Positions 29,235 through 57,124 of a stretch of DNA of 64,000 nucleotides are shown in pieces (position 1 is the stretch's first letter; every line of letters starts with the position of its first letter). The stretch comes from Alphaproteobacteria bacterium. GTDB taxonomy: Bacteria; Pseudomonadota; Alphaproteobacteria; UBA828. The position numbers were made by a program, and so were the translations under genes. Location: NCBI GenBank assembly GCA_965237415.1, contig CBDEFM010000001.1:512001-576000 (forward strand), written 5' to 3'. The notes below the pieces were generated by a model. The model was not told the DNA's origin. It saw nothing but the letters and a program-made list of their open reading frames with translations, and ran no database searches.

Positions 29235-30419
29235 ATGCCGAGGCGAAGCACGGTCAAACTGACCAGGCGCAGCATCGACCGGTTGACGGTCGCCGACAAG
29301 GATGCCGTCTTCTGGGACCGGGACCTCCCCGGCTTCGGAGTCCGGGTCCATGCTACAGGGCGCAAGGTCTATGTGGTCCAGTCCCGGGGCCCGGCCGGCC
29401 TGAAGCGAGTCACCCTCGGACCCTATGCCGCCATCTCGATCGAAGACAGGAGACGTCAGGCGGCAGAGGTCATCGACCGCATCAAGCGCGGCGACGATCC
29501 GCTGCCGCCGGAGCCTGCGCCCGAGCCCACGGTCGCCGATCTGGCGGCCCGCTGTCTGTCCGTCCATTTCGGTGTCAGGTGCAGGCCGGTAACGGCCAAG
29601 GCCTACAAGATGGCCCTCGACCTTCATGTTCTTCCTGTCTTCGGGGCAATGCCGCTGAAGGAGGTCGGTCCCGAGGAGGTCGCCGCGCTCCACCACCGGA
29701 TGCGCGACAAGCCATCGATGGCCAACCGGGCGGTGTGGGTGTTGTCCAGGCTGTTCGTCCTGGCCGAGACCTGGGAGATGGTGCCGCCCGGCCAAAACCC
29801 TTGCCGGCATGTCCGCAACTATCGCGAGAAATCCCGCGAGCGATTCCTGACGCCCGAGGAGTTCCGGCGCCTCAGGACGGCATTTCGGAAGTTCGAGGCC
29901 GCGGGTTCGATGCAGCCATCGGCGATCGCGGCGTTGCGCCTGCTGATGCTCACCGGCTGCCGGGCAGGCGAGATCCTGTCGCTGCAATGGGACGACATCG
30001 ACCGCACGGCGGGCGTGTTGCGGCTGCGAGACAGCAAGACCGGCCCGCGCATGGTGCCGCTGACCGGTCCGGCGCTGGCGGTGCTCGACGGCATCGAGCG
30101 GATCGAGGGCATTCCCTGGGTCATCCGCAGCAACAAGCCCGATGCCCACCTGACCAACCTCTTCTCGCACTGGCAGCGGATACGGGAGGAGGCCGGTCTC
30201 CACGATGTCCGCATCCATGACTTGAGGCACAGCTACGCCTCCCGGGCGCTGGCGCTCGGTGAGAGCCTGCCCGTGATCGGTCGGCTGCTGGGCCACAACA
30301 AGGTCGAAACCACCGCAAAATATGCCCACCTGATGCGCGATGCGGAAAAGGCCGCAGCCGCCCGCACCGGCGACAGCATCGGCGCCCACATCATGCCCCA
30401 GGACGCCGAGGCGGCGTAG
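29235..30419 (+). CDS. Tyrosine recombinase/integrase with N-terminal arm-binding domain (Int1)
   Basis: WDRDLPGFGVRV arm domain; catalytic R (GCR), K, HDLRH, LGH, Y all present. Confidence 0.95.
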   Translation: MPRRSTVKLTRRSIDRLTVADKDAVFWDRDLPGFGVRVHATGRKVYVVQSRGPAGLKRVTLGPYAAISIEDRRRQAAEVIDRIKRGDDPLPPEPAPEPTVADLAARCLSVHFGVRCRPVTAKAYKMALDLHVLPVFGAMPLKEVGPEEVAALHHRMRDKPSMANRAVWVLSRLFVLAETWEMVPPGQNPCRHVRNYREKSRERFLTPEEFRRLRTAFRKFEAAGSMQPSAIAALRLLMLTGCRAGEILSLQWDDIDRTAGVLRLRDSKTGPRMVPLTGPALAVLDGIERIEGIPWVIRSNKPDAHLTNLFSHWQRIREEAGLHDVRIHDLRHSYASRALALGESLPVIGRLLGHNKVETTAKYAHLMRDAEKAAAARTGDSIGAHIMPQDAEAA

Positions 30420-30431
30420 GGACACTCAGCG

Positions 30432-31601
30432 ATGGCACTGCAACAGAAGATTCTTTCGAACCGCACCGTGGCGGTGCTTGAGGTGGCGCGCGACACGGTG
30501 TTCTGGGACCGGGAGCTCACCGGCTTCGGCGTCCGCGTCTATCCGACCGGCGGCAAGGTCTATATCGCCCAGGCTCGGGGGCCGGACGGGCCGAAGCGGG
30601 TCACCGTCGGGCGCCATGGCGTGATCGGCGCCGAACAGGCGCGCCGGCGAGCGGCGCTGATTATCGCGCGGATCAAGGCGGGCGAGGAGGCGGTCCCCCT
30701 GCCGCTTTCCGCCTTGGCGGCCGGCGGCCCGACCGTGGCCGACCTCGCCGCGCGCTATCTCGAAGAGCATGTCGCCGTGCGCGTGAAGCCCAAGACGGCC
30801 GCGAATGCCCGCATCGCGGTTCACAACCATATCCTGCCCGCTCTCGGCCGGCTGCCGCTCGCAGCGGTGGAGCGCGCCCAGGTCATCTACCTGCAACAGA
30901 AGATGTCCGGCAACCCGTCGGCGGCGAACACGGCCGTCAAGACCCTGTCGCACATGTACGGCCTGGGCGTGGGCTGGCGCATGGTGCCGGAAGGCTGCAA
31001 TCCGTGCCGGTCGGTCGCGAAATATCCCGAACGCAAGCGCGAACGCTTCCTGACCGACGCCGAGTTCACCCGCCTGGGGCGGGTGCTGGAGGACGCCGTC
31101 ACCCAGGGCAACGCATCGCCGACGACCGTAGCGGCGATCCGTCTCTTGATGCTGACCGGATGCCGGAAGAACGAAATCCTGACCCTGCGCTGGAAGGATG
31201 TCGACCTCGATGCCGGTGAGCTCAACCTGGCGGACGCCAAGACTGGCCCCCGCGCGGTCCAGTTGCCCCCGACCGCGGTCCGCATTCTCCAAACCCTGCC
31301 GCGCCGGATCCACAGTCCCTGGGTGTTTCCGGGCCGCGACCCGAAAGCACGTCTGAGCACTGTCAATCATCTCTGGCTCGCCGTCCGGGCGCGGGCCGGA
31401 CTGGAGGATGTCCGGCTGCACGATCTCCGCCATAGCTTCGCTTCCCGGGCGTTGGCGCTCGGCGAGACCCTGCCGGTCATCGGCAAGCTGCTCGGCCACA
31501 GCGACATCGAGACGACGGCCCGCTACGCCCATCTGGCGCGCGATTCCCTCCACGAAGCGGCGGACCGGATCGCCGACAGCATTGCAGCGGATGTCTTGTA
31601 G
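30432..31601 (+). CDS. Tyrosine recombinase/integrase with N-terminal arm-binding domain (Int2)
   Basis: Paralogue of Int1, 12 bp downstream; GCRKNE, HDLRH, LGH, TARY intact. Confidence 0.95.
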   Translation: MALQQKILSNRTVAVLEVARDTVFWDRELTGFGVRVYPTGGKVYIAQARGPDGPKRVTVGRHGVIGAEQARRRAALIIARIKAGEEAVPLPLSALAAGGPTVADLAARYLEEHVAVRVKPKTAANARIAVHNHILPALGRLPLAAVERAQVIYLQQKMSGNPSAANTAVKTLSHMYGLGVGWRMVPEGCNPCRSVAKYPERKRERFLTDAEFTRLGRVLEDAVTQGNASPTTVAAIRLLMLTGCRKNEILTLRWKDVDLDAGELNLADAKTGPRAVQLPPTAVRILQTLPRRIHSPWVFPGRDPKARLSTVNHLWLAVRARAGLEDVRLHDLRHSFASRALALGETLPVIGKLLGHSDIETTARYAHLARDSLHEAADRIADSIAADVL

Positions 31602-31648
31602 GCGCATCGATTCCGGTGGCACGACAGTGCAGATTGCTCGTAAGCCAT

Positions 31649-31867
31649 GGTCTGTCGACGCCTCATATCCACGACCTCGGGCACAGCTTCGCGTCACGAG
31701 CACTGGCTCTAGGCGAAAGTCTCACGATGATCGGGAAGCTATTGGGGCATACCCAAGTCCAGACCACCGCTCTCTACGCCCACCTTGCCCGGGATTCCAT
31801 TCAGACGGCGGCCGCGCGGATCACGGGGAGTATTTGGCGGGAACCTCCTGGTGAACCAGGGCGATGA
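31649..31867 (+). pseudogene. Integrase 3' fragment R1
   Basis: IHDLGHSFASRALALGESLTMIGKLLGHTQVQTTALYAHLARDS. Confidence 0.9.
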
Positions 31868-32094
31868 CCCAACGCCGCCTTTGAGGCCCCCTCCACGCGC
31901 GCTTGACCAATCCGCCCTGACTCTGTGTAACCCTTCGCTCAGGCAGTGATGTATCGCTAGATCAGGAGGACTGACATCGGCTGGATGCGCCTCAAATTGC
32001 CAGCCCCTGCGCGTCGGATCGGCTAATACATGAAGCTACTGTCTGACTTAAGACGGCGAATCAGCTTGAGCGCTACCTACACTTCGGAGCAGCG

Positions 32095-35000
32095 ATGAAC
32101 TATCCATTGAGACACATCTCCCTCCGCGTGCCCTGGCACGACACCGGATGGAACGGCAGTGTCTGCGCCGCGCCAAGGTTGAATGGCGCATGCCTCAACC
32201 TGAAGCGCATCGCGCAAAACCGCAATGACGATGCTGAGGAATCCGTCGCAGGACAGAGCATCCAGGATCTACCGCAGGAGAAGTGGCCGTCATGTATCCC
32301 CGAACGCTCCAGCTTCATGGCGCCCTTCGAATATGTCCGCCAAGCCAATCATCCCTACAACCGTGGTCCCGAGACGAGTCACGGCCACTTCAAGCGTACT
32401 CCGCTACGCCATCCACCATACTCGGCGCCCGCCGTGCCCTTCGCCTGGATGCTCCGCGAAGCGATGGGGACTCTTGGTGAAGAGCACGCGCTCGATGTTC
32501 AAGCCGAACGAGAACCCGATCTGGGATTCAAGACATCGTGGGTCCAGGATCACCTGAACCAGACTGCCCTGCTCGACTGCTTCGCCGACCACCTCAGGCC
32601 CGAACGCTCTCTCTGCTTCTTCTACGCCAAGCAGGTACCGTTCGTTGAAGACCCGGCTGGCGGCCGCATCCTCATCGGCGCAGGACGCGTGCTGCATGTC
32701 GGCGCGCTGCAGGAGTATCGATACGCCACGAAGAACCTCGACAACAAACTACGCTCGATGCTGTGGGAGCGCATGATCCAGCACTCGATCCGTCCCGACT
32801 TCAGCGATGGCTTCCTGCTCCCGTACCATGCGGCCGTCGACAGGGCGGCTGTAGATCCAGAGTTCGACCCGGCGGAGATCGCCGCCTTCTCGCCCGCCGA
32901 CCGGCTTCTTGAGTTCTCCCATGCCTCGCAGTTGGTCAGCCATGACGGCGCCATTGCCTCGCTGCTTGCCTGCGCCGAATCGCTTCGCAAGGCCCAAGGC
33001 GTGCTCCCCGGACCGTGGGAGCGGTCCCTGCGGTGGATCGACGCCCGCCTCGCCCAGCTATGGAAGGCGCGAGGTCCGTGCCCCGGGCTTGGCGCGGCGC
33101 TGTCCGCATTCGGGCTCGAACTCGGTACCTTCGTCGCCCGCGCGCTCATGGAGAAGGCCGGCGACAACGCCGATCCCTGGCCGCTGGTCGCCAAGATGTT
33201 CGTCGATCCTTCCACTCACCTGCCGGACCCTTTGGCCAAGGGCATCGGTGAGACCATCTGCAAAAAGTGGTCGCGGCTGCCCGAGGAGCGACGTGCGCTG
33301 CTCAAACTGATGAGTCGCTTCGAAATCACACCGGAGCAGGCGACCGTGCTCTACGTCCAGGAAGAGCGCGCCGCGGCCGGCATCGACACCGGCGACGCGG
33401 CCATTCTGGCCAATCCGTACCTGCTTTACGAACTGACGCGTCTGACCGCCGACCCCGTAAGCGTCTGGACCGTCGACCGTGGTGTCTTTCCGGACGAAGT
33501 CATCCGCAACAAGCACCCGCTCCCATCTCCGACTGCCCTCGATAGCGGCACCGACGCCCGTCGGGTGCGCGGGTTCACGGTCAAGGTTCTCGAAGATGCG
33601 GCTAGCCGGGGCAACACACTTCTTCCCCAGGATCAGGTGGTCCTCGGCGTTCGCGCGCTCCCCCTCCAGTCGCCCTGTCAGGTCGATGCCGACCTGATGA
33701 ACGTTGCCAAGGACAACTTTGAACAAGCCGTCGATGAGCTTGCGATGGCCGACGGTGCTCCGGCCCTCCAGCTCGACAGGCTGAGCGAGGTGAAAGCGAC
33801 TATCCGCAGGGCAATCGACAGGCGTGTCAAAGGCAAGCGCCTGGCAGTCGCGGCCGACTGGCGGGCGCTTCTCCGGCAACATCCCTCCACCCAGTCGACT
33901 GGAGAGCCCGACGAGCACGTCGAACGCGCCCGCACGGAGCAGACCGCGGCGCTCACCGAGCTCGCCGAGGCGCGCGTCTCCGTGCTGATCGGTCCGGCCG
34001 GCAGCGGCAAGACCACGTTGTTATCGGTCCTGTGTGCGCACCCGGATGTCGACGAGGGTGGCGTCCTCCTGCTCGCGCCGACCGGTAAAGCCCGCGTGCG
34101 CATGGAAGATGCCGCCAGGGCGCTCGGACTCAAGGGCTACACCATCGCCCAGTTTCTGAGTCCCCACCGCTACGACAGCGCGACCGGTCGATACCGATTT
34201 TCGGACATCCCGGCCGAGGCGGGCGCACGCACCGTCATCATCGACGAGGCTTCGATGCTGACCGAAGAGATGCTTGCCGCTCTGATCCAGGCGCTCAAGG
34301 GCGTGCACCGGCTCATCCTCATTGGCGATCCCCGCCAGCTCCCCCCGATCGGCGCCGGCCGGCCGTTCGTCGACATCGTCAAGCATCTCGCCCCAGAGGG
34401 CGTCACGGAGCAATTCCCGCGTGTCGCCCCCGGCTATGCCGAACTGACTATCCGTCACCGACAGTCGGGCGAGCATCGCGAGGACCTGCAGTTTGCGGAG
34501 TGGTTCAGCGGCTCTCCGCTCCCCGCGGGCGAGGATGACGTGTTCGAACGGGTCATGGGTGCCGACCCGCCGAGGCACATCCACTTCGTGCAGTGGGATA
34601 CCGCGGACGAAATGCGCTCCCGGCTCATCGACGTCCTGGTCAGCGAGCTCAAGTGCCTGGGCGGAGCGCCCGCGCTCGCGCACGCCGATGACATACCCGG
34701 GTTCGATGCCACGCTCGGGGGCGTCGTGTGGAACGACTTGCGCTTCTTCAACCCTCGCAAGGGTAGGCAGGCCGGAGCAGCCGAAGTCGCCGAGAGTTGG
34801 CAGATCCTCTCGCCCGTACGATCCGCAGCCCATGGCGTGCCCGATCTCAATCGCCTCATTCACAAGCGGTTTCGACAGGCGATGATCGATGACGCCCGCA
34901 AGGTGGGCAGGCAACGCAAGATCCCCAAGCCCATGGGGCCTGAGGAGATCGTCTACGGCGACAAGGTGATTAACCTTGTCAACACCGACCCCGCCCTCTT

Positions 35001-35856
35001 CTGGAACCGGCATCGCAAGATCTACCCGCGAAAGGACGACCCCTACATCGCCAACGGTGAAATCGGCATGGCTGTCGGGTTCTACCACAGGAAGGGGTCG
35101 CCTGACCTACGCTGGAAGCTTGAGGTAGAGTTCTCTTCGCAGCCCGGCTTCAAGTACGACTTCACCAGTCGCGATTTCCGTGAAGAAGGCAGCGCGGTCC
35201 TCGAGCTCGCCTACGCGCTCACGGTCCACAAGTCCCAAGGCAGCCAGTTTGGCACGGTCATCCTAGTGTTGCCAAACCCGTGTCGCCTGCTCTCGCGCGA
35301 GCTTCTCTACACCGCGCTCACGCGACAGAAAGATCGCATCGTAATCCTGCACCAGGGACCACGTACCGAGTTGCTAAAGTATTCTTCGGACGACCGCTCC
35401 GAAACCGCGCGGCGCCTGACCAACCTGTTCATCGCGCCGTCGCCCATCGAGATCGATGGGCGCTTCTTCGAGGATTACCTAATACACCGCACCATGGACG
35501 GTCAAATGGTCCGCTCGAAGTCCGAGGTGATCATCGCCAACCATCTCGCCAACAACGATATCGAGTACGAATACGAGCGTCCACTCACAATCGACGGCGT
35601 CACGAAGTACCCAGATTTCACCATCGAGGATATGGAGTCCGGGTTGACGGTGTACTGGGAGCATTCCGGGATGTTGCACGTCCCCAGCTACAAAGCCCGC
35701 TGGGATGAAAAGCGCGCATGGTACCGAGGACACGACATCCTGCCCCACGAAGAAGGAGGCGGCGAGAACGGAATATTGGTGGAGACACGGGATGAACCAA
35801 ATGGAGGCATCGACTCCGCGAAGATCATTGCCCACATAACCGAAGTGCTCGGTTGA
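32095..35856 (+). CDS. Large RecD-like SF1B helicase with unknown N-terminal region and C-terminal PD-(D/E)XK-like nuclease
   Basis: GPAGSGKT, DEASM, GDPRQLPP, AYALTVHKSQGS, YTALTR; C-terminal RSKSE..YEYE..PDF..WEH. Confidence 0.88.
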   Translation: MNYPLRHISLRVPWHDTGWNGSVCAAPRLNGACLNLKRIAQNRNDDAEESVAGQSIQDLPQEKWPSCIPERSSFMAPFEYVRQANHPYNRGPETSHGHFKRTPLRHPPYSAPAVPFAWMLREAMGTLGEEHALDVQAEREPDLGFKTSWVQDHLNQTALLDCFADHLRPERSLCFFYAKQVPFVEDPAGGRILIGAGRVLHVGALQEYRYATKNLDNKLRSMLWERMIQHSIRPDFSDGFLLPYHAAVDRAAVDPEFDPAEIAAFSPADRLLEFSHASQLVSHDGAIASLLACAESLRKAQGVLPGPWERSLRWIDARLAQLWKARGPCPGLGAALSAFGLELGTFVARALMEKAGDNADPWPLVAKMFVDPSTHLPDPLAKGIGETICKKWSRLPEERRALLKLMSRFEITPEQATVLYVQEERAAAGIDTGDAAILANPYLLYELTRLTADPVSVWTVDRGVFPDEVIRNKHPLPSPTALDSGTDARRVRGFTVKVLEDAASRGNTLLPQDQVVLGVRALPLQSPCQVDADLMNVAKDNFEQAVDELAMADGAPALQLDRLSEVKATIRRAIDRRVKGKRLAVAADWRALLRQHPSTQSTGEPDEHVERARTEQTAALTELAEARVSVLIGPAGSGKTTLLSVLCAHPDVDEGGVLLLAPTGKARVRMEDAARALGLKGYTIAQFLSPHRYDSATGRYRFSDIPAEAGARTVIIDEASMLTEEMLAALIQALKGVHRLILIGDPRQLPPIGAGRPFVDIVKHLAPEGVTEQFPRVAPGYAELTIRHRQSGEHREDLQFAEWFSGSPLPAGEDDVFERVMGADPPRHIHFVQWDTADEMRSRLIDVLVSELKCLGGAPALAHADDIPGFDATLGGVVWNDLRFFNPRKGRQAGAAEVAESWQILSPVRSAAHGVPDLNRLIHKRFRQAMIDDARKVGRQRKIPKPMGPEEIVYGDKVINLVNTDPALFWNRHRKIYPRKDDPYIANGEIGMAVGFYHRKGSPDLRWKLEVEFSSQPGFKYDFTSRDFREEGSAVLELAYALTVHKSQGSQFGTVILVLPNPCRLLSRELLYTALTRQKDRIVILHQGPRTELLKYSSDDRSETARRLTNLFIAPSPIEIDGRFFEDYLIHRTMDGQMVRSKSEVIIANHLANNDIEYEYERPLTIDGVTKYPDFTIEDMESGLTVYWEHSGMLHVPSYKARWDEKRAWYRGHDILPHEEGGGENGILVETRDEPNGGIDSAKIIAHITEVLG

Positions 35857-35939
35857 TCTGAACGGAACCCGCGAAGCCTCGCGGACACGTACTCCTCGCC
35901 GAACCGTCCCCGCACGATACCGTATGCGGATTCCGCCGT

Positions 35940-36119
35940 AACCTTCGCCACTCCTTCGCCAGCGGCGGTCTCTTGGTCGGTGAAGGCTTGCCCATGATTG
36001 GCAAGCTGCTGGGCCACACCCAGGTCCAAACCACGGCCCGCTACGCCCACCTCGCAAACGATCCCGTCAAGTCAGCCGCAAACCGGATCGCAAGCCGAAT
36101 CGCCGAGGTGGCAGGGTGA
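35940..36119 (+). pseudogene. Integrase 3' fragment R2
   Basis: NLRHSFASGGLLVGEGLPMIGKLLGHTQVQTTARYAHLANDPVKSAANRIASRIAEVAG*. Confidence 0.9.
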
Positions 36120-36366
36120 GGCCGGAAAGGGACAGTTTCCAATAAGGGGCGATTTCCCCATGGCCCGCCTCGGGTCGTAACGCCGGCTTGCTCCTCGCTG
36201 CAATCCTGGCGCGCGTCCACCACAGCTCCCGCGACCGGGTCTGCCAGCCTATCCCGGAGCGCTTCTTGCGGCGGATCTCACCGTGCACATGCTACCTTCG
36301 TGCAACGCTGCTACTCGACATCTTCATGCCCCATGTGGAATTCCTTCGACATTGGAGACGCGCCCA

Positions 36367-37653: not shown

Positions 37654-37920
37654 TGCTCTTGTGAGACCTGAAACGACTCGTAGCGTGCTAGCGAACGAGT
37701 TTACGCTCAGGTGGACTTCCTCGCCGGTCTTAATCCTTTGGACACTGCCTCATGGCTTGTAGTCTACCGGCACCCAGCGCAACCTGAACCTCTTGGCTCG
37801 GCCAATGTAGCGACGACGCGACCGCTCAGCACGTCCTCCAGTGGCTCCTAACTGGTCGACGCATGCCCCAAGACTATTAACGCATCGATTGGCGATCTCA
37901 TGAACCAAGCCTAGAATTGG

Positions 37921-40960: not shown

Positions 40961-41023
40961 AGCTCATGGGCGTGCATTGACTAGCTGTACAGAGATACTG
41001 TTCAGCTGACAGTGCCGTCCGGG

Positions 41024-47307: not shown

Positions 47308-47347
47308 GTCAAACTCGCTGCAACCTCGAAGCTGAAAGACAATCAAG

Positions 47348-47650: not shown

Positions 47651-47769
47651 AAAACAGATTGGAATGCTGCAAAGACCCGGTGGACGTGACAGGTTCGGCA
47701 ATGTCGGCTTGGCGACCAACGGCAGCGCTATCGCATCTATGTCTGCTAACTGACCGCTATCAAACAGCA

Positions 47770-47860
47770 CAACGCCAACCCCATCCCCTTCGTCAGGACA
47801 GCCACCGACAGGGCAATCATCGAAAAAGTCACCCGTAGAAATCAAGCATTGGAATCTCGG
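47770..47860 (+). mobile_element. IS630 transposase 3' remnant
   Basis: PFVRTATDRAIIEKVTRRNQALES resembles IS630 C-termini. Confidence 0.5.
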
Positions 47861-47883
47861 CAGTCGCGACAGCAATTTCTTCG

Positions 47884-48801: not shown

Positions 48802-48931
48802 CACACGGCGCAACCCGTGAGTGATATGACCAGTGGATTTCAGGCGGTCGAAGACTGCCTGATCTTCTGGCTGAATATCTATCTCAGAAATTGTTCAACC
48901 TCCTACAGCCGCTTGTATGACCAAATCCGCC

Positions 48932-49260
48932 TCAGCGGGGGCTTGCCCGGGGACGTGTTTTGTCGCGGCACAACCCGTCGACGCCGGCCTCAACGTAGCG
49001 CGCGCGCCAACGTCGAGTGGTCGGCTTGCTCACCCCCAAGCAACGCCGAATTTCATCCGTGTCGACGCCGTCGCCGGCCAAGGCCAATATCTGCGCCCGC
49101 CGGGCATGTTTCTGCGACGTATTGCCGTTGGAATTCAAGGCTCTCAGCCGCTCCCGATCCCCGGGAGCCAGCTGAATCCTCACCATCTTGCCCATACCCG
49201 CACACTCACATCAAATCCACCGGATCGGAATCTTTTGTTTCGGGCAACGGCGCGGACTGA
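48932..49260 (-). mobile_element. IS630 transposase 5' remnant (HTH part)
   Basis: DRERL...QKHARRAQI...GVSKPT.RRWR.RY...GVDGL.RDKTRP. Confidence 0.75.
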
Positions 49261-49275
49261 TCTCCAGCATCGCAC

Positions 49276-50307
49276 TCAATCGCCTTGGTCTTCCCGCGCA
49301 TTTGCCCTGGCCTCGATGCCGGCGCAGTACTCCATCAGGCGTTCGAAGGGCTCGTCGATGTCGAGCAGCATGCCGTCGGCCAGCATTCTGCCGTAGTCGT
49401 CGGCCAGGACATCGAGGGCCGGGCCTGACGGGATCAGCTGTAGTCCTCCTCCGACCGCAATCTGGTAGTCGATTTCGTTGCCGGCAGCGTCCTTCTCCCG
49501 GAAGAAGATCGCCTTGTGGCGTGCGACCGAATGCGCGACCGCACGGTCGGCGAGAGCGCGGGCCGCAACGCCGGCATCGTCGAGCCTCGCCAGGTCGTGC
49601 CAGTGGCGGGACAGGCGCTCGCCGCGTTTCCTCTCCTGCCGGCAGAAGACGTGGATGGCGGTGGCCTTCTCCCAGAATGTCCGCTCGGCCAGCATGACGG
49701 ACGGCCGCGCCCGCGGAAACAGAAGGTCTGGCAGGAACGGGGCCGCGTCGCATTCGACGGGCCGGATTGCCCGGGGCTCGCCCGTCGAGCGCGCCCCGAA
49801 CTCCACCGTGACTTCCGGGCGCACGAAGGCGTAGTCGTCGAACAGCGGTTCATAGACGATGCGCAGGCGCTCCGAGTCCGCCTTTAGCCGCGGCTCGAAT
49901 CCGTCACGCCGAAGGTGCGCTTCGACCGACGGCGCGGCTTCGTCGAGGACCCACGCATCGAGACGGGCCCGGATCGCCTTGGTCCAGCGGCGCTCCTGGC
50001 TGCGCGTGGGCGGCAGCGCCTCGGCGCCGGCGTCTGCGACCAGGTCGGGGGCGAAGGCCCGGATGTCATAGGTGATGTCGACGTCTTCGGAGAAGCGGCG
50101 GATCGCGCGGTACGCCTTCGACAGCGAGGTTCCGCCCTTGAAGGCGAGGTCCTTGCCGAAGGGCGCCTCGAACAGGGCGTGGAGCGTTGCGACGACCCAG
50201 ATGTCCTTCTCGAGCAGGAACGCACGGTGCGGGCTGCCGGCTTCGGCAACGCGCAGGGCGTCGCGTCGGTCGCCAGCGGAGAGCGACCGATACGGTGTCT
50301 CAGCCAT
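49276..50307 (-). CDS. abiEii: AbiEii nucleotidyltransferase toxin (type IV TA)
   Basis: LEKD, FKGGTSLSK, RFSEDVD, RTFWEK, SRHWHD. Confidence 0.92.
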   Translation of the reverse strand: MAETPYRSLSAGDRRDALRVAEAGSPHRAFLLEKDIWVVATLHALFEAPFGKDLAFKGGTSLSKAYRAIRRFSEDVDITYDIRAFAPDLVADAGAEALPPTRSQERRWTKAIRARLDAWVLDEAAPSVEAHLRRDGFEPRLKADSERLRIVYEPLFDDYAFVRPEVTVEFGARSTGEPRAIRPVECDAAPFLPDLLFPRARPSVMLAERTFWEKATAIHVFCRQERKRGERLSRHWHDLARLDDAGVAARALADRAVAHSVARHKAIFFREKDAAGNEIDYQIAVGGGLQLIPSGPALDVLADDYGRMLADGMLLDIDEPFERLMEYCAGIEARANAREDQGD

Positions 50308-50896
50308 GGGCGAGGCGCGCGCTGACCGATTCAGCCATCCAGATGGGCATGATCGCCCGCGCGGCGGCGAGCTCGTCGACTTCGGCGCCGGAGAGCCCGG
50401 GCAGGAGCGCCTCGAGACCCTCCTCGACCTCATGCGGACCGAGCCAGGCGAGGGCGCGAATGACCTCGCCCGCCTTGCGGCGCGGCGCCGCCAGTTGCCA
50501 GCGGGGGGCGTGGCGCAGTTCGACCGTGACGCGCCCGAATTGCAGCCGCCGGCTGCGGCCCGAAGTGAGATAGACCTCGCGGACGGGGTTCTGGGCGGTC
50601 AGGCCCAGCCGGTTGGCCGCGGAGCCGCCGCAGGGAACGATGATCTCGCCCCAGAGCTCGGAGAGCGCTTCGAGCGCCTTGCCGATGCGCGGCGGACACG
50701 GACCGAAGCGGGTCTCGACGGGATGCATGTAGACACCCTGGCAGATGCGCATCAGCCGCCCGGCACGGGCGAGGCGCGCCAGCGCCTGGTCCACCGCCGC
50801 GCGCTTGCCCAGGTGAAGGAGGGCGGCTGGACAGATCGGCGTAGCCTCGGGCAGGCCCGAGGCGTGCTCCATGATGCGTTTCGGTAGGCTGGACAT
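50300..50896 (-). CDS. abiEi: AbiEi-type antitoxin (DUF6088-like)
   Basis: AVDQALARL...RICQGVY, AANRLGLT.Q.P, YLTSG; overlaps the abiEii start. Confidence 0.85.
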   Translation of the reverse strand: MSSLPKRIMEHASGLPEATPICPAALLHLGKRAAVDQALARLARAGRLMRICQGVYMHPVETRFGPCPPRIGKALEALSELWGEIIVPCGGSAANRLGLTAQNPVREVYLTSGRSRRLQFGRVTVELRHAPRWQLAAPRRKAGEVIRALAWLGPHEVEEGLEALLPGLSGAEVDELAAARAIMPIWMAESVSARLAHG

Positions 50897-51109
50897 GGTC
50901 CTGTCCCGCAAATTATGTCAGAAATATAGGTGTGAAAGTGTCAGTCTGCAACGCCGGTTCGAGGTGAGGTTCTCCGAGATGAACACCGGCTACGGAGAGC
51001 CGGTCCCGCCACGGGCCCGGCGGGAGTTCCTGCGGCTGATCGACTGTGGGTACTGACCCTCTCGAATTGCCCGCCAACACGATCGCGACAGCGTGGTCCG
51101 GCGGCAAAT

Positions 51110-51427
51110 TCACGTAATCGACGTCAGACCGTTCTTCTCGACCAGTGTCAGCAGTTTCAGTGAGGCGCCGCGCGGGCGCTTCTCGCCGCACTCCCACTGG
51201 CTCACCAGACCCGTGGTCACGTTCAGGTAGCGGGCGAACACCGCTTGGCTCGCATGCTCCCGCAGCCGGATCTCACGGATCCGCTCCGGCGCCATGTCCT
51301 CGATCGGAGTCAGACACATCTCGCCGAAGACCTTCATGGTCCGCTTCGACATCACGCCCGCCTCCGTCATGCCGAGCGCCGCCTCATACGCGGCCGCCAG
51401 GGCCTCACTTCTGTATTGCTTCGGCAT
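51110..51427 (-). CDS. XRE-family HTH antitoxin (HigA-like), toxin gene absent
   Basis: IREIR.RE.ASQAVFARYLNV...VSQWE.G.KRP.G..LKLL. Confidence 0.85.
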   Translation of the reverse strand: MPKQYRSEALAAAYEAALGMTEAGVMSKRTMKVFGEMCLTPIEDMAPERIREIRLREHASQAVFARYLNVTTGLVSQWECGEKRPRGASLKLLTLVEKNGLTSIT

Positions 51428-51599
51428 CGCAGTTCACCTCGCCGATCGTGCCCTTCGCCGGCATCGCTTCCAGAGCTGCCGGCCCGCCACCGGTCCCGCC
51501 GGGCGATGTGCCCGTTCGAGGCGACGGCCCGGAAAGGACCGGGACCTCGGCGCGTCGCGGTCATCGTTCGAGCCTATCGCAGTCCATTCGTACGCGCTA

Positions 51600-51765
51600 T
51601 CCAGGTCGCGTTCGATGCTGTCGCCGATGTGCGCCGCGAACCCCTCCACGGGATCGCGGGCGAGATGGGCGCAGCGAGCGGTGGTTTGGGCCTGGCGTGG
51701 TCCGGTTCCCGGCTACCCCAGAGCGTGGTATCCGGATGGCATAGCGACCTGCGAAGCTCTGCGGC
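51600..51765 (-). pseudogene. Degenerate integrase 3' fragment R5 (inverted orientation)
   Basis: QAQTTARCAHLARDPVEGFAAHIGDSI; faint QSFAGR further upstream. Confidence 0.7.
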
Positions 51766-51839
51766 CGACATGATTCTTGAGTGATGACCGATACCCGGAC
51801 ATCATCCTGCCTTCAGCATAGCCACCAGTTCGGACAAGC

Positions 51840-52778
51840 ATGTCGGGCACCGCCGATCCTCTCGCCAACGATACCCGGATGCGTCTCCGAGCCTTGGAGC
51901 ACGTCCAAAGGCTCACCGAGATCCACGGACCGTTGACGGCCAAACTGCTGAGCGCGGGCTTCGACTCCGACGGTGCGCGCATCCCCCTCGTCAACCCGCA
52001 GCGCGGCATCTTCAAACCGCGCCAGATGCGTTTCCTCCTCTCGATCAAGACCGTCGTGCCGAAACGCGGCGGCAAGGTGTGGTACGACGACCAGCGTGAA
52101 GCCCATCGGCAGATCTACCAGGGCAAGGAAACTGTCGATTACGCCTTCATGGGCACAAACCCGGAAGCCGCCGACAACCAATGGCTGCGCGAGGCCCACG
52201 AACACCAGGTTCCCGTCATCTATTTTCTCGGCGTCACACCGGGCAGATATCAGGCTTTGGTCCCGACCTTTATTTCCGGATGGGATCCGTCCTCGCTCAA
52301 AGCGACCATTTCGTTCGGCCTGCCCGAACGCGACGACCTCTCGATACCGCCGCAGGCGGCGGAGCGCCGCTACGCCCTGCGGGTCGTGAAACAGCGTCTC
52401 CATCAGGATTCGTTCCGCGAAGCGGTCATCACCGCCTATAGGGGTCGCTGCGCCCTGTCGGGACTGCGTGAGCATCGCCTGCTCGATGCGGCGCACATCA
52501 TTTCTGACAAGGACGAACTGCTGGGCCAGCCGGTCGTGCCGAACGGACTCCCGCTATCGAAGATCCACCACGCCGCGTTCGACGCCGATCTGATCGGCAT
52601 CGATCCGGATTACGGCGTGCACGTTTCCGAGCGTCTTCTTGAGCAGCGCGATGGTCCGATGCTGGACGCCCTGAAACAGCTCCAAGGTGGCGCACTGCAT
52701 CTACCCGTTCGGATTGGCGACCGCCCAGACCGCGAGCGCCTGGCGAGGCGCTTCGACCGCTTCAAGGCTGCGGCCTGA
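51840..52778 (+). CDS. HNH endonuclease with N-terminal putative DNA-recognition domain (restriction-like)
   Basis: RLHQ..FR..V..AY...CALSG, LDAAHI, NGL.L...HH.AFD. Confidence 0.9.
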   Translation: MSGTADPLANDTRMRLRALEHVQRLTEIHGPLTAKLLSAGFDSDGARIPLVNPQRGIFKPRQMRFLLSIKTVVPKRGGKVWYDDQREAHRQIYQGKETVDYAFMGTNPEAADNQWLREAHEHQVPVIYFLGVTPGRYQALVPTFISGWDPSSLKATISFGLPERDDLSIPPQAAERRYALRVVKQRLHQDSFREAVITAYRGRCALSGLREHRLLDAAHIISDKDELLGQPVVPNGLPLSKIHHAAFDADLIGIDPDYGVHVSERLLEQRDGPMLDALKQLQGGALHLPVRIGDRPDRERLARRFDRFKAAA

Positions 52779-53209
52779 CAAGTCAGCCGTTCACCAAAGT
52801 GTCAGTGTCGCCTGCGCTGCTCGGTTCCGGGCCTAATCGGCGGTTTTCCAGAGCCGGCCCGAGGTCGCTGCAGATTGCGCGTGTAGTAAGCGGCCAGCCT
52901 TCGCATTGCTCCACGGTCGTGTGCGGCCATGGCACGTATGCCGCAGTTGCAGGATATCCCCTAACTGAAGTTGTGGCCGGCGGCGCGGCGCACACGTATG
53001 GTCTCCGCCATGAGCAGTCTTGACGGACGAAATCATGGTGCTGATCGCGACGAACCCAATCGGCTGGGCCGAAGCGGAGCAGCCCCAAGAAGGAATACCC
53101 GGAGAACGGCGGTGCATGCGCAAGCGGCGGAGACGACAGGATCGCATGGCTCTCGGTGTGCAAAACCGCGACATGAGTCGCCGATCGATACCACCGCCAG
53201 CCATGCTGG

Positions 53210-53394
53210 CGGTTACACGATCTTCGCCACTCTTGTGCACCATATTCCATTAACTTACTATTCTTATTGTGTTTTTCATCTTTCCATTTCGTTCCGTAAT
53301 CATATAGTCACCGGATTCGATCTATATCGTGACGCGACATGTCGCGTCATGCACCGCCATCTCCCGCTGGTCTCGAAATTGCCCCAAAATACTC
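53210..53394 (+). repeat. RLHDLRHS junction plus conserved non-coding arm, copy B, with a 20-bp palindrome
   Basis: CGG TTA CAC GAT CTT CGC CAC TCT TGTGCA; blocks shared with 41404-41561; TGACGCGACATGTCGCGTCA at 53330-53349. Confidence 0.75.
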
Positions 53395-53431
53395 GTAAAG
53401 GTTCGGTCGGGCCGGTATGGGTCGGTGGATT

Positions 53432-54313
53432 TTACCGATTGAGGGTTCGCTTCCAATCTCTTCGCAGGGGCCGAAGCCAGATGTCCTTCCTGGGCTTGTC
53501 GTACAGCTTGTCCCGGTCGTATCGGCCGCGCCCCTTGGTCGCTCCGACATGGATCCAGCCGGAGGCTCTGTAGACGGCTCCGGTGTAGCGGGGCGTCTCG
53601 ACGAAAGTCTCGATGAGCACGGGCGTTGTGTTGTAGCGCTCGGTCCAGTCCTCGGGCAGGCGCCGGCGGATGATGGCGAGGATGTGCGAGCCCAGGTTGG
53701 GGATATTGATCCAGGGCAGGATCAGGAACCGCGGGTTATCGACCACGAGGGGGAGGTTCTTCTCGCGCAGTTGCGGCGTCCACCCGATGAAGGTGTCGCG
53801 CGGGGCGAGCTTCCAGGCGGCGGTGGAGAAGCCGAGCATGGCGACGGGCCAGCCGTTGCGGTCGTGGGCGGCGTAGCGCATCTGGGCGCCGACCAGGGTC
53901 CTGTAGCCGAGATAGTGGTAGCGGGCGATGAACTCGTTCCACAGCTTGCCCTCCCGGGTGCCGCGCACGACGGGCCGCAGGGTGAGCGGACGGACCTCGT
54001 CGAGGGTTGTCGGCGTCGGGAACAGCGGCGGTTGGGTGTGCGGTCCGAAGATGATGGGCTTGGGCCGGTTCTGCCGTCCCTGCTTCGGCGGCAGAACGAT
54101 GAGGCCGTCGCGGTGCATATCGAGCATGGTGACCCTGGCCATCATGTCCTTGAGGCCGCCGTCGGGCTTGAACCAGCCGATGCGCCGGCAGAACGCCTTC
54201 GACAGGCGATGGCGGTTCAGCGCCGGAGGGTCGGCGATCAGGGCGCGCAGCAGCGCCATCTCTTCGGCGGTGAAGTCGCGGCCGTAATAGCGGCACTCGA
54301 CGGCGCCGGTCAT
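53432..54313 (-). CDS. DUF4338 (Druantia DruA-like) protein carried inside the IS
   Basis: YHYLGY, G.QMRY, RD.FIGW, N.RFLILPW, ETFVE, G.VYRASGW..VG.TKGRG. Confidence 0.85.
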   Translation of the reverse strand: MTGAVECRYYGRDFTAEEMALLRALIADPPALNRHRLSKAFCRRIGWFKPDGGLKDMMARVTMLDMHRDGLIVLPPKQGRQNRPKPIIFGPHTQPPLFPTPTTLDEVRPLTLRPVVRGTREGKLWNEFIARYHYLGYRTLVGAQMRYAAHDRNGWPVAMLGFSTAAWKLAPRDTFIGWTPQLREKNLPLVVDNPRFLILPWINIPNLGSHILAIIRRRLPEDWTERYNTTPVLIETFVETPRYTGAVYRASGWIHVGATKGRGRYDRDKLYDKPRKDIWLRPLRRDWKRTLNR

Positions 54314-56871
54314 CCCGGCGCCGTCAGTGCGAGCCTGTGTTCCTCGTTCATCGACCATGGCAGCCAAGGCGACAGGTCGTCCGGCGGTCGACGGCCATTC
54401 TTCGCGCATTCTTCCAGCCACGCCTCAAGCCAGCGCAGGACATCGATGCCGTTCAACGCGAGGGTGCCCACCACCGAGTACATCATGGCCGTGAACCGGG
54501 CGCCGGTCTCGCTGTCGGAGCCGAACGACAGGCGTCTTCCGATCGCTGGCCCTCTGAGCATCCTTTCGGCGAGATTGTTGTCCATCGGCGTCAGCGGGCG
54601 GTCGACGAAGACGCTCAGCCCCTCGCGATGGTTGATGAGCGAGCGCAGGGCCTTGCCCTCACGCGCCTCGTCGGGCAGGCCGGCGAGCTCCCGTTCGGCC
54701 TGCGCGAACAGGCCGTCGAGCGTCTCCTTCAGCGCGCCCTGTGCCGTGTCGAACGCCGGCGTCTGGCGCTCAAGCCCGGCGCCGTAATGCTCCAGCCGCG
54801 CCTCGTTCAGGCGGTAGATCGACGCGATCCGCTCGATCCATCCCCGGCACCATTCCGTCAGGCTGACCTGGCCGGCCGCGCACTCGATAAAATCGCGCCG
54901 TTGATGAGACCAGCAGAACGCAAGGGTCACCAGCCCCCCGCGAAGGCGAGCGAGCCGCTTGTAGGCGCTATAGCGGTCGCAGACGATGACCGTGTGGAGG
55001 AGGGCCGCCGCGAACAGCTTCTCCGCCGCTTCGGCGCTGCGCGAAGGGTCGATATGGAAGTAGACGGCATCGCTGCTGACCGAGGTCCACAGCCAGGCGC
55101 GGCTCGACCGGTCTTCCCCGCGAAGCTCTTGCACGCGCCAGCTGGTTTCGTCGGCATGGCGCAGCGCCGCCTTGTCCTGGTGCGCGAGGATCGCCCCGGC
55201 GACTGGCTCGAACAGTGGCACGAAGCGGAGCATGCTGTCGGCGAGCGTGCCGGGAGAGATCGGCAGCCCCCGGTCGGACAGCCACGCGGCGACCCGCTTG
55301 AGCGGGCGGTAGCAGGCATAGCGTTCGAACAGGACGCAGGCCCACACGCTGATTCCGTAGGGCGTGTTGCGGAACAACCGCGGCACCGGGGGCGCCGACA
55401 CTTCGATCGGCGACGACGCGCAGCCGCAGGCCCGGCGCCAGCGCGGACGGCGGATCACACGCTTGTGGGCCTTGACGTCGATCTCGACGAGCGGGGAGAT
55501 ATCGGCGCCGATCGCCGCATAGGGCTTGCCGCAACAGGAGCACACACGCGCCTCCTTCGGCGGGTTGATCTCCTCCTCGCGCTCCTCGAGCCCGGGCCGT
55601 CGGGTACGGCCATGGCCTGGGGCGCCGCGCTGCTGGCCGCGCGGGCGTCCGGAACGCGGCGTCTCCTGCTTCTCGCTCTTTCGGCCGAACAGCGCCTTCG
55701 ACAGCACCGCCCCGGTCGCGCGAAGCCTGGCAAGCTGCGCTTCCAGCGTCTGGATCCGATTCCACGACGCCTTCGCGCCCTTGCGCAGCCGGGCGTTCTC
55801 CCTGGACAGCGATTTGATCGTGGCCTTCTGGCGCCGCGATCTCCGCAATGCCCTGCGCAGGTCGGCATCCGCAATGGACAGCGACTTCGACAGCGTCTTC
55901 CTGACCGCTCGAAGCCCGGCAAGCTCGGACTCAAGCGCCTTTCTGATTGCACGAAGTTTGGCAGGCTGAACCTCCAGCGACGCTTGCCGCCTCTCCAACT
56001 TCCGCACGGTCCTGCGCAGCCGGGCGTTCTCCTTGCCGAACGACGTGATCGTGGCCTTCTGGCGCCGAGATCTCCTCAGGGCTGTACGAAGTTGAGCAGC
56101 CTCGTCGCACGACAACTTTGACAGCGTCGCCCCGGTCGCGCGAAGCTTGGTAAGCCGCGCCTTCAATTTGTCCTTTTGGGCCTCGGACACGTTCAGAGCA
56201 ACGCGCAGCCGGTAGCCCTCGCCGGACAAGGATTTCACCGCGTCCTTCTGGTCGCGCAGTCGCCTCAGTTCCGCAACAAGACGAACGATCTCGCGGTTCT
56301 GCGATCCGATCGTCTCCTTGTGGGTTTCCGCGCCCTGCAAATCCTTGCGCAACTCACGGACCTCGTACTCCAGCAACCCGGCCTTCGCCGCCCGGGCCTG
56401 CGCCACCTTCAGAGCCTTGCGCAGCTGGTTGACCTCCGTGAGCGACACAACCGGGGGCTGCCTGGCGGCCTCGATGCGGGATTCCGAAGGCCGCTGCTCA
56501 AACCGCGTCACTTCCGCCTTCGATGATTGCGCGGCCTTCACCGCGCGACGCAGTTCCTTCACCTCGACGCGGGACGCCTCCAGCTTGCCCCGACAGCTGT
56601 CGAGCTGCCACTTGAAAGAACCCGCCCGGGAACGAGCATCCACATCTGACCGGCGCAGCTCTTCACAGCGTGCTTCGGCCGCGTCCGCCCGCGCCCGTTC
56701 CCGCTCCGCACGGGCGTGCTGCCGCTCGTACAGCGAACGCCAGTCGCGCGGCTGCTGCTCCAGCACGGACGCAGGGAACGACCAACCTGCATCGTCACCA
56801 TCGGCCTGCGTCAGCGCTGCGCCAATATCTTCGTCGAGAACCGCCATGCGCTCAACGATAGCCCATGGCAA
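54310..56871 (-). CDS. IS66 family transposase with long N-terminal coiled coil
   Basis: LFGRKSEK, CxxC zinc finger, HADET, CDRYSAY, CWSHQRR, DNNLAER..R. Confidence 0.92.
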   Translation of the reverse strand: MPWAIVERMAVLDEDIGAALTQADGDDAGWSFPASVLEQQPRDWRSLYERQHARAERERARADAAEARCEELRRSDVDARSRAGSFKWQLDSCRGKLEASRVEVKELRRAVKAAQSSKAEVTRFEQRPSESRIEAARQPPVVSLTEVNQLRKALKVAQARAAKAGLLEYEVRELRKDLQGAETHKETIGSQNREIVRLVAELRRLRDQKDAVKSLSGEGYRLRVALNVSEAQKDKLKARLTKLRATGATLSKLSCDEAAQLRTALRRSRRQKATITSFGKENARLRRTVRKLERRQASLEVQPAKLRAIRKALESELAGLRAVRKTLSKSLSIADADLRRALRRSRRQKATIKSLSRENARLRKGAKASWNRIQTLEAQLARLRATGAVLSKALFGRKSEKQETPRSGRPRGQQRGAPGHGRTRRPGLEEREEEINPPKEARVCSCCGKPYAAIGADISPLVEIDVKAHKRVIRRPRWRRACGCASSPIEVSAPPVPRLFRNTPYGISVWACVLFERYACYRPLKRVAAWLSDRGLPISPGTLADSMLRFVPLFEPVAGAILAHQDKAALRHADETSWRVQELRGEDRSSRAWLWTSVSSDAVYFHIDPSRSAEAAEKLFAAALLHTVIVCDRYSAYKRLARLRGGLVTLAFCWSHQRRDFIECAAGQVSLTEWCRGWIERIASIYRLNEARLEHYGAGLERQTPAFDTAQGALKETLDGLFAQAERELAGLPDEAREGKALRSLINHREGLSVFVDRPLTPMDNNLAERMLRGPAIGRRLSFGSDSETGARFTAMMYSVVGTLALNGIDVLRWLEAWLEECAKNGRRPPDDLSPWLPWSMNEEHRLALTAPG

Positions 56872-56965
56872 AACGCGTTACCAGCCCAATTTTAGAGTTC
56901 ATCCCGACATGGATGATGAGCCCAACGTCGGCCTATACCGGCCCGACCGAACCTTTACAAATACT

Positions 56966-57124
56966 CGGCATTCCATCGCGTTTCGTGCGCTGGCGCTCGG
57001 CGAGATCCTGCCGGTGATCGGCAAGCTGCCGGGCCACAGCGATATCGAGACGACGGCCCACTACGCCCATCTGGCGCAGGACTGGATTCATCAGACCGCA
57101 GAGCGCATCGCCGATAGCATTGCG
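56966..57124 (+). pseudogene. Integrase 3' fragment R6 (Int2-like)
   Basis: RHSIAFRALALGEILPVIGKLPGHSDIETTAHYAHLAQDWIHQTAERIADSIA. Confidence 0.88.

Follow-up and report, generated by a model that had tools for sequence, protein, structure and literature searches.

A candidate recombination core in the HDLRH codons of P4-type integrase genes, read from an array of orphan integrase ends and cargo in an alphaproteobacterial genome

Introduction

P4-type tyrosine integrases usually, though not universally, target the 3' part of a tRNA or tmRNA gene, and the core site of a tyrosine recombinase consists of two arms around a short overlap; its catalytic residues are R..K..HxxR..H..Y. In SSV1 and Mx8 the attachment site of the element (attP) lies inside its integrase gene (int), the target being a tRNA gene and the int that is split being the element's own. 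Serial integration at a regenerated site, including by members without a recombinase, is known from the staphylococcal cassette chromosome (SCC) islands at rlmH, which use serine recombinases (Ccr), and from elements exploiting dif and the host Xer recombinases; in both the target is a housekeeping one. The present analysis concerns a 64,000-nucleotide stretch (the window) of contig CBDEFM010000001.1 (positions 512,001 to 576,000) from an alphaproteobacterium of the UBA828 lineage (assembly GCA_965237415.1), in which a pair of integrase genes, Int1 and Int2, is followed by cargo genes separated by orphan integrase pieces (R1 to R6). An original prediction had described these as an integron-like array, the recombination site of which lies inside the integrase gene, at the codons for the catalytic box HDLRH.

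In tandem arrays of the Islander type, as treated in the part of PMC4383910 used here, the crossover falls inside a gene, and displaced co-directional 3' fragments of the target mark successive arrivals. Elements termed GInts carry an operon of several tyrosine recombinases at one end (PMC5385486, in the passages drawn on), and the corresponding passages of PMC10214605 describe multi-recombinase operons for SE, GInt and RIT elements, including a catalytically dead member, GinC or Tfp. A search of the open literature, with subscription journals and supplements outside its reach, returned no description of integrase-box targeting or of integration into integrase genes.

Results and discussion

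Orphan integrase ends part at the HDLRH codons

Int1 and Int2 are 51% identical, lie 12 bp apart and share the Pfam make-up of P4-type integrases (Arm-DNA-bind_3, Phage_int_SAM_3 and Phage_integrase); the catalytic set, as read from the translations, is complete in Int2 (TGCR, KTG, HDLRH, LLGH and ARYAH) and likewise in Int1. Mapping of the window by tblastn with both proteins recovered all of the pieces listed in the original prediction behind the two intact tandem genes, at 31649, 35940, 39071, 41024, 51600, 53210 and 56966 (Table 1; aa numbers are those of Int2 throughout). As had been noted there, R2 and R3 begin, and R4 and the short piece at 53210 (the 53210 site) end, at the (D)LRHS codons: in the DNA alignment similarity halts in all four at ...GAY^CTNCGNCAY (the caret marks the break, here and below), and the starts of R2, R3 and R6 and the ends of R4 and the 53210 site lie at most one to two codons from GAY^CTN-CGN-CAY, the codons for (H)D-L-R-H. 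The abrupt start ascribed to R6 needs a qualification, its left edge being the end of an IS66-family insertion sequence (IS); with the IS removed, R6 abuts a sequence of about 160 bp that begins at the 53210 site, and so still begins at the core. R1 does extend a few codons further upstream, by about nine (GLSTPHIHD), and has its catalytic Arg codon altered to Gly, while R4 contains a stop and an internal gap and ends in HDLTHS (...CATGACCTCACGCAT); R5 is degenerate, as stated. At the 53210 site LHDLRHS alone is integrase-like, the core being preceded by non-integrase DNA.

The fragments also differ from one another and from Int1 and Int2, in line with the prediction, with identities over 54 aa of 67-81% to Int2 and 57-69% to Int1. 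R2 belongs to another subfamily (the GGLLVGEG type) that occurs full-length in five other genomes; in comparison with its relatives (82-91% DNA identity), which extend further 5' in 10 of 12 loci, homology halts at C^TTCGCCAC. The pattern CAYGAYYTNMGNCAY (at most one mismatch) has 10 matches in the window where 2.3 are expected; six lie on the plus strand, in Int1 (CATGACTTGAGGCAC, 30216-30230), Int2 (CACGATCTCCGCCAT, 31419-31433), R1, R3 and R4 and at 53216. The window holds at least seven cores, which point in one direction throughout, and the displaced target fragments stand as direct repeats, each running from the crossover point, as in tandem accretion. Perfect contigs from four public runs of two studies span the junctions of R2, of R3 and of R4 with the adjoining sequence LE1 (see below), which are therefore not an assembly artefact of this record.

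Breakpoints at the box exceed chance

As matches in protein searches tend to stop at conserved motifs, the breakpoints were tested against a direct simulation. A hidden Markov model (HMM) built from 171 full-length rows (170 collected integrases and Int2) was applied to all stop-to-stop frames of the window's own genome (contigs C1 and C2 below) and of 96 loci (numbered L below), giving 180 full-length, 77 3'-fragment, 48 5'-fragment and 25 internal rows. Rows at or below 0.8 bits per residue (other recombinase families), pieces continuing upstream and pieces at contig edges were dropped, leaving 50 orphan 3' fragments. Nineteen of the 50 start at aa 327-336, compared with 3.5% of 1020 truncations simulated at uniformly random positions with a random upstream peptide (binomial p 3e-15), and five more start at aa 320-326. 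In the simulated fragments the median inferred start preceded the real cut by 2 residues, so that the bias from motif edges is small. Eleven 5'-anchored or internal fragments end, correspondingly, at aa 332-342. A recombination hot spot at the HDLRH codons, where displaced tails stand in line with cargo, is a real feature and far exceeds chance.

The core consensus of the family, taken over 159 genes, is ATCCACGAC^CTCCGGCACTCC. A CAYGAY-like arm, which a core site with two arms would require, is kept in most left flanks of orphan tails, even beside unrelated DNA, as in L021 (TTTCATGAT), L005 (CTTAACGAT), L024 and L067 (GTGCCAYGAT), C2:2261 kb and R1 (both ATCCACGAC); the flanks of R2 (CGTAAC), R3 (CGCGAC) and R6 (CAAAAT) are without it.

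A conserved element end joins integrase genes at one nucleotide

Immediately behind the core of R4 begins a conserved AT-rich element end of roughly 180-200 bp, here called LE (copy LE1), and a mini copy (LE2) begins behind the core of the 53210 site; the joints read ...CATGAC-CTCACGCAT^TCTTGTGCA and ...CACGAT-CTTCGCCAC^TCTTGTGCA, respectively. A profile of five copies detected LE elsewhere in the same genome (C1:690.6 kb, C2:2238 kb and C2:3704 kb), in loci of other genomes (L004/L083, L009, L017, L022, L061, L077 and L082, and partially L037 and L096) and in nine of the 21 genomes of the genus. The joint has the same nucleotide, ..CGNCAC^TCTTGTGCA, at both copies in the window, at the three others in the genome and in L004, L009, L017, L022, L061, L077 and L082. 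This was also seen by eye in all 12 further loci of the genus, where LE starts (T/A)(C/G)TTGTGC right after the 15-mer xAYGAY-YTN-NGN-CAY, and in seven of them a tblastn integrase piece reaches the core, ending at aa 335-343. LE copies resemble one another even though the integrase 5' parts in front of them have no more than about 36-84% identity to Int2, a contrast that suggests repeated insertions.

LE occurs in two settings: after an integrase 5' part cut at the box (R4, C2:2237, C2:3704, L077, L082 and loci of the genus), or after the Int2 stop and some 50 bp that end in a copy of the box codons (L004, L009, L017, L022 and L061). In L107 a 177-bp LE separates both halves of an integrase, much as LE2 stands between the core and R6; on the strength of this likeness, 41024-57124 is likely to be one integrase gene (R4 and R6) split by two tandem LE insertions, the IS66 element, which has a perfect 8-bp target duplication (AAATACTC), having come later. 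A larger insert of the same layout is a 23-kb island at C2:2237-2261 kb, bordered on one side by an integrase 5' part with LE attached and on the other by a 3' tail; it contains an MmeI-like methylase, IS110 and IS1595 transposases, HU, a subtilase and a reverse transcriptase; no tyrosine integrase was found inside it.

LE gave no credible match to a known RNA or intron in Rfam (one snoRNA hit, E 0.21), and its folding is modest, with one strong hairpin (z -1.5 as RNA and -2.7 as DNA). These features bear on the distinctly unlikely explanation that LE is a small target-specific element in its own right, MITE-like (miniature inverted-repeat transposable element) or of the homing type and served by an unlinked enzyme, which homes to the HDLRH codons and leaves the tails as deletion by-products and the integrases as victims. 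Homing elements typically insert in the most conserved motif of a gene family, as LE would here, and its constant orientation and joining nucleotide, the 165-180-bp mini copies flanked by both target halves and the three copies followed by an IS66-type end would all suit such an element; against this, besides the single hairpin and the lack of an Rfam family, R1 to R3 and the first tail of L021 have no LE nearby, only 3-5 of 17 IS66-type ends adjoin LE, and the repeats around LE2 and the L107 copy are imperfect.

That LE is a part of the IS66 element was ruled out, as the IS is bounded by inverted repeats of its own and by a target duplication, and the majority of its ends lie away from LE. 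An IS66-type terminal repeat, GTAAAGGTTCGGTCGGGCCGGTAT, is present at the right end of three LE copies (41612-41639, 53395-53424 and C2:3704260-3704283), and two more of the 17 IS66-type ends in the genome have LE-like flanks; this IS66-type element seems to prefer the LE/core joint.

Related modules and a recent exchange

Int2 has 55 matches in its own genome, many of them in tandem pairs or trios, and 289 relatives were confirmed in a scan of public genomes. In the best 80 loci of these 289, which come from Alphaproteobacteria and from records titled Nitrospinota, Gemmatimonadetes, Deltaproteobacteria and Gammaproteobacteria, an Int1-like gene lies directly upstream of the Int2-like gene in 68 cases and is absent in six, a further six being fragmentary or at a contig edge. 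Each of the 18 further genomes of the genus covered by the search has copies of the Int1-Int2 module, and several have five or more. Within a genome, the stretch common to the copies begins about 240 bp 5' of Int1 and runs to the Int2 stop, and homology between module copies ends 0-40 bp past that stop. A plasmid collection gave only matches of at most 45% identity, annotated as site-specific integrase.

Two loci of one genome, L020 and L021, share 97% identity over a 2.6-kb stretch that begins 240 bp before Int1 and ends 40 bp beyond the Int2 stop, and they part at GTTTCATGA(C/T)^; L021 then continues with CTTCGCCATTCCTACGCC (an LRHSYA... tail), L020 with unrelated DNA. Further tails, one of them cut by an IS, lie downstream in L021. 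In this freshest case the exchange falls at a core copy some 40 bp past the Int2 stop and not inside an intact gene, to which extent the predicted recombination within the integrase gene has to be amended. Arrays of orphan tails behind Int2 recur in L021, L008, L019 and L028, in unrelated genomes, which supports the array put forward originally.

It had further been suggested that each arrival replaces the 3' end of int. The last 54 residues of Int2 are 87-96% identical to those of its 12 nearest relatives and so of the native type, and none of the fragments comes closer in the same comparison (R1 67-70%, R2 65-69%, R3 78-85% and R6 78-83%). Replacement at each arrival is thus not shown, and a swapped-in 3' end of Int2 is unsupported.

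A proposed route to the array

The reading towards which we lean is that the DNA coding for HDLRH is a site-specific recombination core and that serial events at this core built the array; the breakpoint excess, the LE junction and the L020/L021 exchange agree with the earlier proposal that this DNA behaves as such. The core would be the 15 bases for H-D-L-R-H in the P4-type family, and catalysis would be due to Int1 and/or Int2, or to relatives of them. Partner DNAs with a look-alike core would recombine with integrase genes, the partners being LE (about 180 bp), with or without kilobases of cargo, or in some copies the short stretch past the Int2 stop. Exchange would divide a resident integrase, leaving its 5' part attached to LE and its 3' part as an orphan tail that starts at the core, and the four kinds of junction (gene 5' part with tail, gene 5' part with LE, spacer with tail, and spacer with LE) may all be products of core exchange.

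Tandem insertion at one split gene predicts the order of the right half, namely 5' part-LE ... spacer-LE ... tail. There the R4...R6 integrase would have been split by two tandem insertions, LE1 with 11.8 kb of toxin-antitoxin, defence and unassigned genes and the 165-bp mini-element LE2, an IS66 element having landed at the LE2/R6 joint afterwards. The left half is less easily accounted for. Its three tails, of at least two subfamilies and each followed by its own cargo (PDC-S68; unassigned; Schlafen-like), would most simply be what successive integrations at a core have left behind, the arriving elements having an integrase of their own that spans the attachment site, as the order R3...R4 suggests. 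The 5' parts would since have disappeared, probably through deletions made by an integrase from the true core to weak secondary sites. R3-cargo 3-R4 is the sole unit with the order int 3' part ... int 5' part and, if circularized, would carry nearly a whole integrase across the joint; R1 and R2 have no 5' partner.

The mechanism is best called "integrase-in-integrase" targeting: it would be site-specific, accrete DNA in tandem and involve a passenger end of 180 bp that had not been noticed before. As a tentative and rather doubtful extension, a widespread family of paired P4-type integrases may use the HxLRH codons as attachment core, collecting integrase-less units and non-autonomous LE into one-directional arrays of defence and other cargo, so that integrase genes would supply the enzyme and serve as its landing pad alike. 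The second integrase might then use a site of its own, formed by the KTG codons where the module begins on the left. If the reading is true, any resident island or prophage with a related integrase would be a docking site, and each docking would inactivate a competitor's integrase and stack cargo alongside, which would account for the growth, in these genomes, of defence-rich regions littered with integrases and lacking a tRNA anchor. Orphan tails running from the HDLRH codons, together with the LE junction, would then offer a signature for island mapping, and targeting of this kind would provide a tractable pair of sites for dissecting the role of each tandem integrase.

Evidence weighed against the proposed route

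Several observations weigh against serial recombination at the box. Truncation points of the R2 subfamily in eight loci are scattered (aa 191, 235, 247, 280, 308, 313, 329 and 331), so that ordinary decay is also at work, and other break clusters exist at aa 272-284, 2-33, 226-247 and 348. The 19 fragments are not independent, three being from the window, L024/L067 and L007/L008 being pairs from one lineage each, L001 owing its break to a plain IS5-type insertion, with a CTAAG duplication, in the HDLRH codons themselves, and L053 owing its break to an IS at aa 340; the excess stands even at roughly 13 independent cases. The family has no one core in common, as the bases at its third codon positions differ between members, and a core copy within 160 nt after the stop was found in only three of 36 second-of-pair genes at one mismatch or less and in six at two or less (shuffle expectation 0.1 and 0.7, respectively). 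Upstream of R1 to R3, tblastn detected no matching 5' halves, either in 29 kb or further up the contig, on which ground a nested "Russian doll" insertion is ruled out for them. In the contigs of the four runs, compared with 28501-48500, there was no excised circle, empty site or alternative cargo, stretches without coverage counting neither way; the "skips" that these contigs do contain have sides of 21-34 letters at 90% likeness joining conserved integrase motifs, and were set aside as excision products and read as integrase paralogues in the metagenomes. Finally, L101-L104 are four copies, 92-100% alike and at different sites of one other genome, of a 13-kb element that opens with the module on the left and continues with cargo; its ends are short, similar (AATTTCYGTAAAATACG... 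and ...GCGCCGGAATTGCC) and unrelated to integrase genes, indicating that the module is also part of whole transposable islands.

Some of these points would follow equally from ordinary decay, in which piled-up P4-type islands are eroded by deletions and IS, the shared break being partly chance and partly a sequence preference of IS or deletions. The insertions at or near the box in L001 and L053, the IS66 element at the edge of R6, the scatter of the R2 subfamily, the degeneracy of R4 and R5 and the wealth of IS elements and large repeats in the genome all speak for it. We nonetheless rate decay as a very unlikely account of the whole: it does not lead one to expect 19 of 50 starts at the box, an LE junction that is nucleotide-identical in about two dozen places with diverse integrase parts, the sharp L020/L021 exchange point, or left flanks that keep CAYGAY.

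The integron-like reading makes the resident Int1-Int2 a platform that captures circles consisting of an int 3' end and cargo, without an integrase, in or behind Int2, the array growing there and its units being exchangeable. Cores uniformly oriented behind one intact pair, tails of different subfamilies, the nearly whole integrase that a circle of R3-cargo 3-R4 would carry at its joint and the similar arrays of L021 and L008 are what such a platform would give, as is the fact that the tail array ends in LE1, which follows a post-stop core in L004 and L082, the closest relatives of the module. We consider it unlikely. Neither cargo polymorphism at the junctions, in the genomes of the genus or in the four runs, nor a circle was seen; the post-stop core is rare; Int2 has a native-type 3' end; cargo is encoded on both strands; and among 28 PDC-S68 loci elsewhere an orphan tail stands upstream in L126 alone and DNA homology is confined to the open reading frame (ORF), so the first unit is not shared as a unit. 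The integrases themselves are not integron integrases, with NCBIfam scores of 41.4 and 54.1 bits against a cut-off of 265 (and of 24-35 against 435). Tails of different subfamilies are indeed lined up with cargo, whereas the right half is better described, on the reading preferred here, as one split integrase with LE insertions than as cassettes of Int2. This array was not found in other genomes of the genus, in which only the 2.4-kb module, R2-like integrases, a 780-bp repeat that lies upstream of Int1 and single genes match.

Cargo and feature map

The coordinates of the features are collected in Table 1. The term "defence-type cargo" is fair for part of the content (PDC-S68, AbiE, HNH, the PDC-S31-like protein and the Schlafen/AlbA_2 protein) and does not extend to several ORFs without a match. 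The candidate defence gene PDC-S68 is present in one of 44 genomes of the family. The L126 homologue, in an unrelated genome, is 78% identical at the aa level, and its orphan tail (3724-3903, aa 322-381, starting near GLPIHD) lies about 100 bp upstream in the same direction; the tail is of a different subfamily, with no DNA homology beyond the ORF. Of cargo 2, only the first ORF has a counterpart elsewhere in the genus, a gene of 84% identity; L086 shares only the ORF at 36308-37662.

Table 1. Features of the integrase-tail array and its surroundings in the window (caret, break point)
Feature	Position	Strand	Basis and remarks
Leader of Int1-Int2, conserved, non-coding	29085-29216	+	Alignment of 17 upstream regions; motifs CCCCTTGCAT, TTGATGCCGC..TGCGGTTTGATGAC
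Int1, intact P4-type tyrosine integrase	29217-30419	+	Likely start ATG 29235; Pfam
Int2, intact P4-type tyrosine integrase	30432-31601	+	Pfam, tblastn
Spacer of 67 bp, then R1 (orphan 3' end)	31602-31840	+	tblastn 31649-31834, aa 323-384; GLSTPHIHD^LGHS...
Cargo 1, SF1-helicase-like protein, 1253 aa	32095-35856	+	PADLOC PDC-S68 full-length, 1602 bits; Pfam AAA_30/UvrD_C_2
R2, orphan 3' end, GGLLVGEG-type subfamily	35937-36113	+	tblastn 35940-36104, aa 331-385; cut ...CCGTAAC^CTTCGCCAC
Cargo 2 ORF, 456 aa	36283-37653	+	No family match
Cargo 2 ORF, 273 aa	37921-38742	-	No family match
R3, orphan Int2-like 3' end	39068-39244	+	tblastn 39071-39244; cut ...CACCGCGAC^CTTCGGCAC; HMM start aa 328
Cargo 3, 518 aa, Schlafen AlbA_2 domain	39404-40960	+	DNA of low G+C (51-53%)
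R4, decayed 5'/middle integrase part	41024-41406	+	41024-41209 (aa 198-259) and 41293-41406 (aa 294-338)
LE1, conserved AT-rich element end	41407-41611	+	Starts TCTTGTGCA immediately behind core; nhmmer E 8e-34
Solo IS66-type terminal inverted repeat, remnant	41612-41639	+	No partner in window
Cargo of the LE1 insertion, with unassigned ORFs	41640-53215	mixed	Pfam, PADLOC, tblastn
PDC-S31-like protein	47884-48813	-	PADLOC, partial match
AbiEii	49276-50433	-	LE1 cargo
AbiEi/DUF6088	50300-50911	-	LE1 cargo
R5, inverted degenerate integrase tail	51703-51602	-	aa 355-388, E 0.001-0.006
HNH_2 nuclease	51840-52778		LE1 cargo
53210 site	53210-53257 (tblastn); 53216-53394 with LE2	+	Core CACGATCTTCGCCAC
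LE2, mini copy of LE, about 165 bp	53231-53394	+	Alignment; core on each side, layout as in L107
IS66-family insertion sequence	53395-56958	-	DDE_Tnp_IS66; 30-bp inverted repeats; between LE2 and R6
R6, Int2-like 3' end	56959-57124	+	tblastn 56966-57124; starts ACTCGGCATTCC; 82% DNA identity to Int2 3' end

Comparison with described systems

With tRNA/tmRNA islands of the Islander type the locus shares a P4-like integrase, crossover inside a gene and co-directional displaced 3' fragments. It differs in that the target is the catalytic-box codons of integrase genes, the 64-kb window containing no tRNA or tmRNA (ARAGORN) and no Rfam family, so that the usual P4-type insertion in the 3' part of such a gene is not seen here; in addition, more than one integrase subfamily is represented among the tails, and it is not obvious that each arrival restores the target. 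As in SSV1 and Mx8, the core lies within integrase coding DNA, and the order R3-cargo 3-R4 is that expected after integration of such elements; here, in contrast, resident integrases of other elements are targeted (5' part, insert, 3' part), and most units have no 5' part. Tandem accretion is likewise shared with the SCC and dif/Xer systems, whereas the target here belongs to other mobile elements.

Integrons resemble the locus in having a recombinase beside one-directional units, each bounded by a copy of the site and carrying accessory or defence cargo. In place of an attC hairpin, the repeated site here is about 170 bp of integrase coding sequence; units are bounded by integrase tails and do not form promoterless cassettes of one orientation, 37921-38742 and 47884-50911 lying on the minus strand; and no cassette exchange was seen in the run contigs or at the PDC-S68 loci. 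The analogy is a likeness of outcome, not membership.

The likeness to GInt, SE and RIT elements and to Tn554 comprises several features: a two-recombinase operon at one end, often preceded by a third gene truncated after KTG; variable cargo starting from the last stop codon; many copies per genome; and whole 13-kb copies with short imperfect end repeats at different sites. Here the domains are of the P4 type, and a small gene like GinD or Srap was not noted, no search with Gin or SE sequences having been made; recombination at integrase-gene codons is not reported in the passages of PMC5385486 and PMC10214605 drawn on.

Further observations on the modules and the genome

The third gene, "Int0", lies upstream of Int1 in L012, L013, L014, L016, L019, L024, L080/L087 and at C1:699806-700591. 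In every case the gene breaks off near aa 272-284 (...D-x-K-T-G), where the conserved leader follows, and it therefore lacks the HxxR, H and Y residues; in this it resembles the catalytically dead GinC and Tfp of GInt and SE operons in the part of PMC10214605 drawn on. In the window's own genome, C1:699888-713356 (the contig end) and C2:2224311-2237779 are 99.98% identical over 13.5 kb, and the identity stops exactly at GACAG(A/C)AAGAC(A/C)GG, the integrase codons D-R/S-K-T-G; past this break C1 enters the leader of an Int1-Int2-Int3 row, and C2 follows the integrase as far as HDLRHS, where LE takes over. The module may have a second recombination site at its left end; two population variants or an assembly bubble would also account for the break. 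Very short integrase 5' pieces end at about aa 33, in the FWDxxLxGFG region (C1:293464-293646, C2:355300-355434, L059, L074 and L076), and this cluster, together with the smaller ones of 3' pieces at aa 226-247 and 348, may represent further preferred break points. Among the 13-kb copies L101-L104, variable inserts of 1.35-2.9 kb follow right after the Int2 stop, one of them bounded by a repeat of the last 135 bp or so of Int2.

The starts of both contigs are inverted copies of internal sequence at 99.96-100% identity (C1:1-15493 of C1:257808-273345, and C2:1-25793 of C2:1132014-1157806). They are either large real inverted duplications or assembly artefacts, and copy counts in this genome need corresponding care.

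The window has about 67% G+C, with lower and uneven values from about 31 to 61 kb. The foreign region reaches to about 61 kb, past the end that had been set for the array, and includes an 824-aa STAND/NACHT-like NTPase with a weak MmeI_N match (58070-60544, minus strand; DNA of 45-49% G+C) followed by an IS1595 remnant (60716-61216). Upstream of Int1 lie a protein with a DnaB N-terminal domain (23154-24128), a 513-aa, possibly anti-defence protein with an Acb2/Tad1 hairpin domain (25512-27053) and two stretches of about 780 bp (27306-28084 and 28232-29019) that are repeated at about 80% in other genomes of the genus; Int1-Int2 may be the right end of an element starting near 23 kb.

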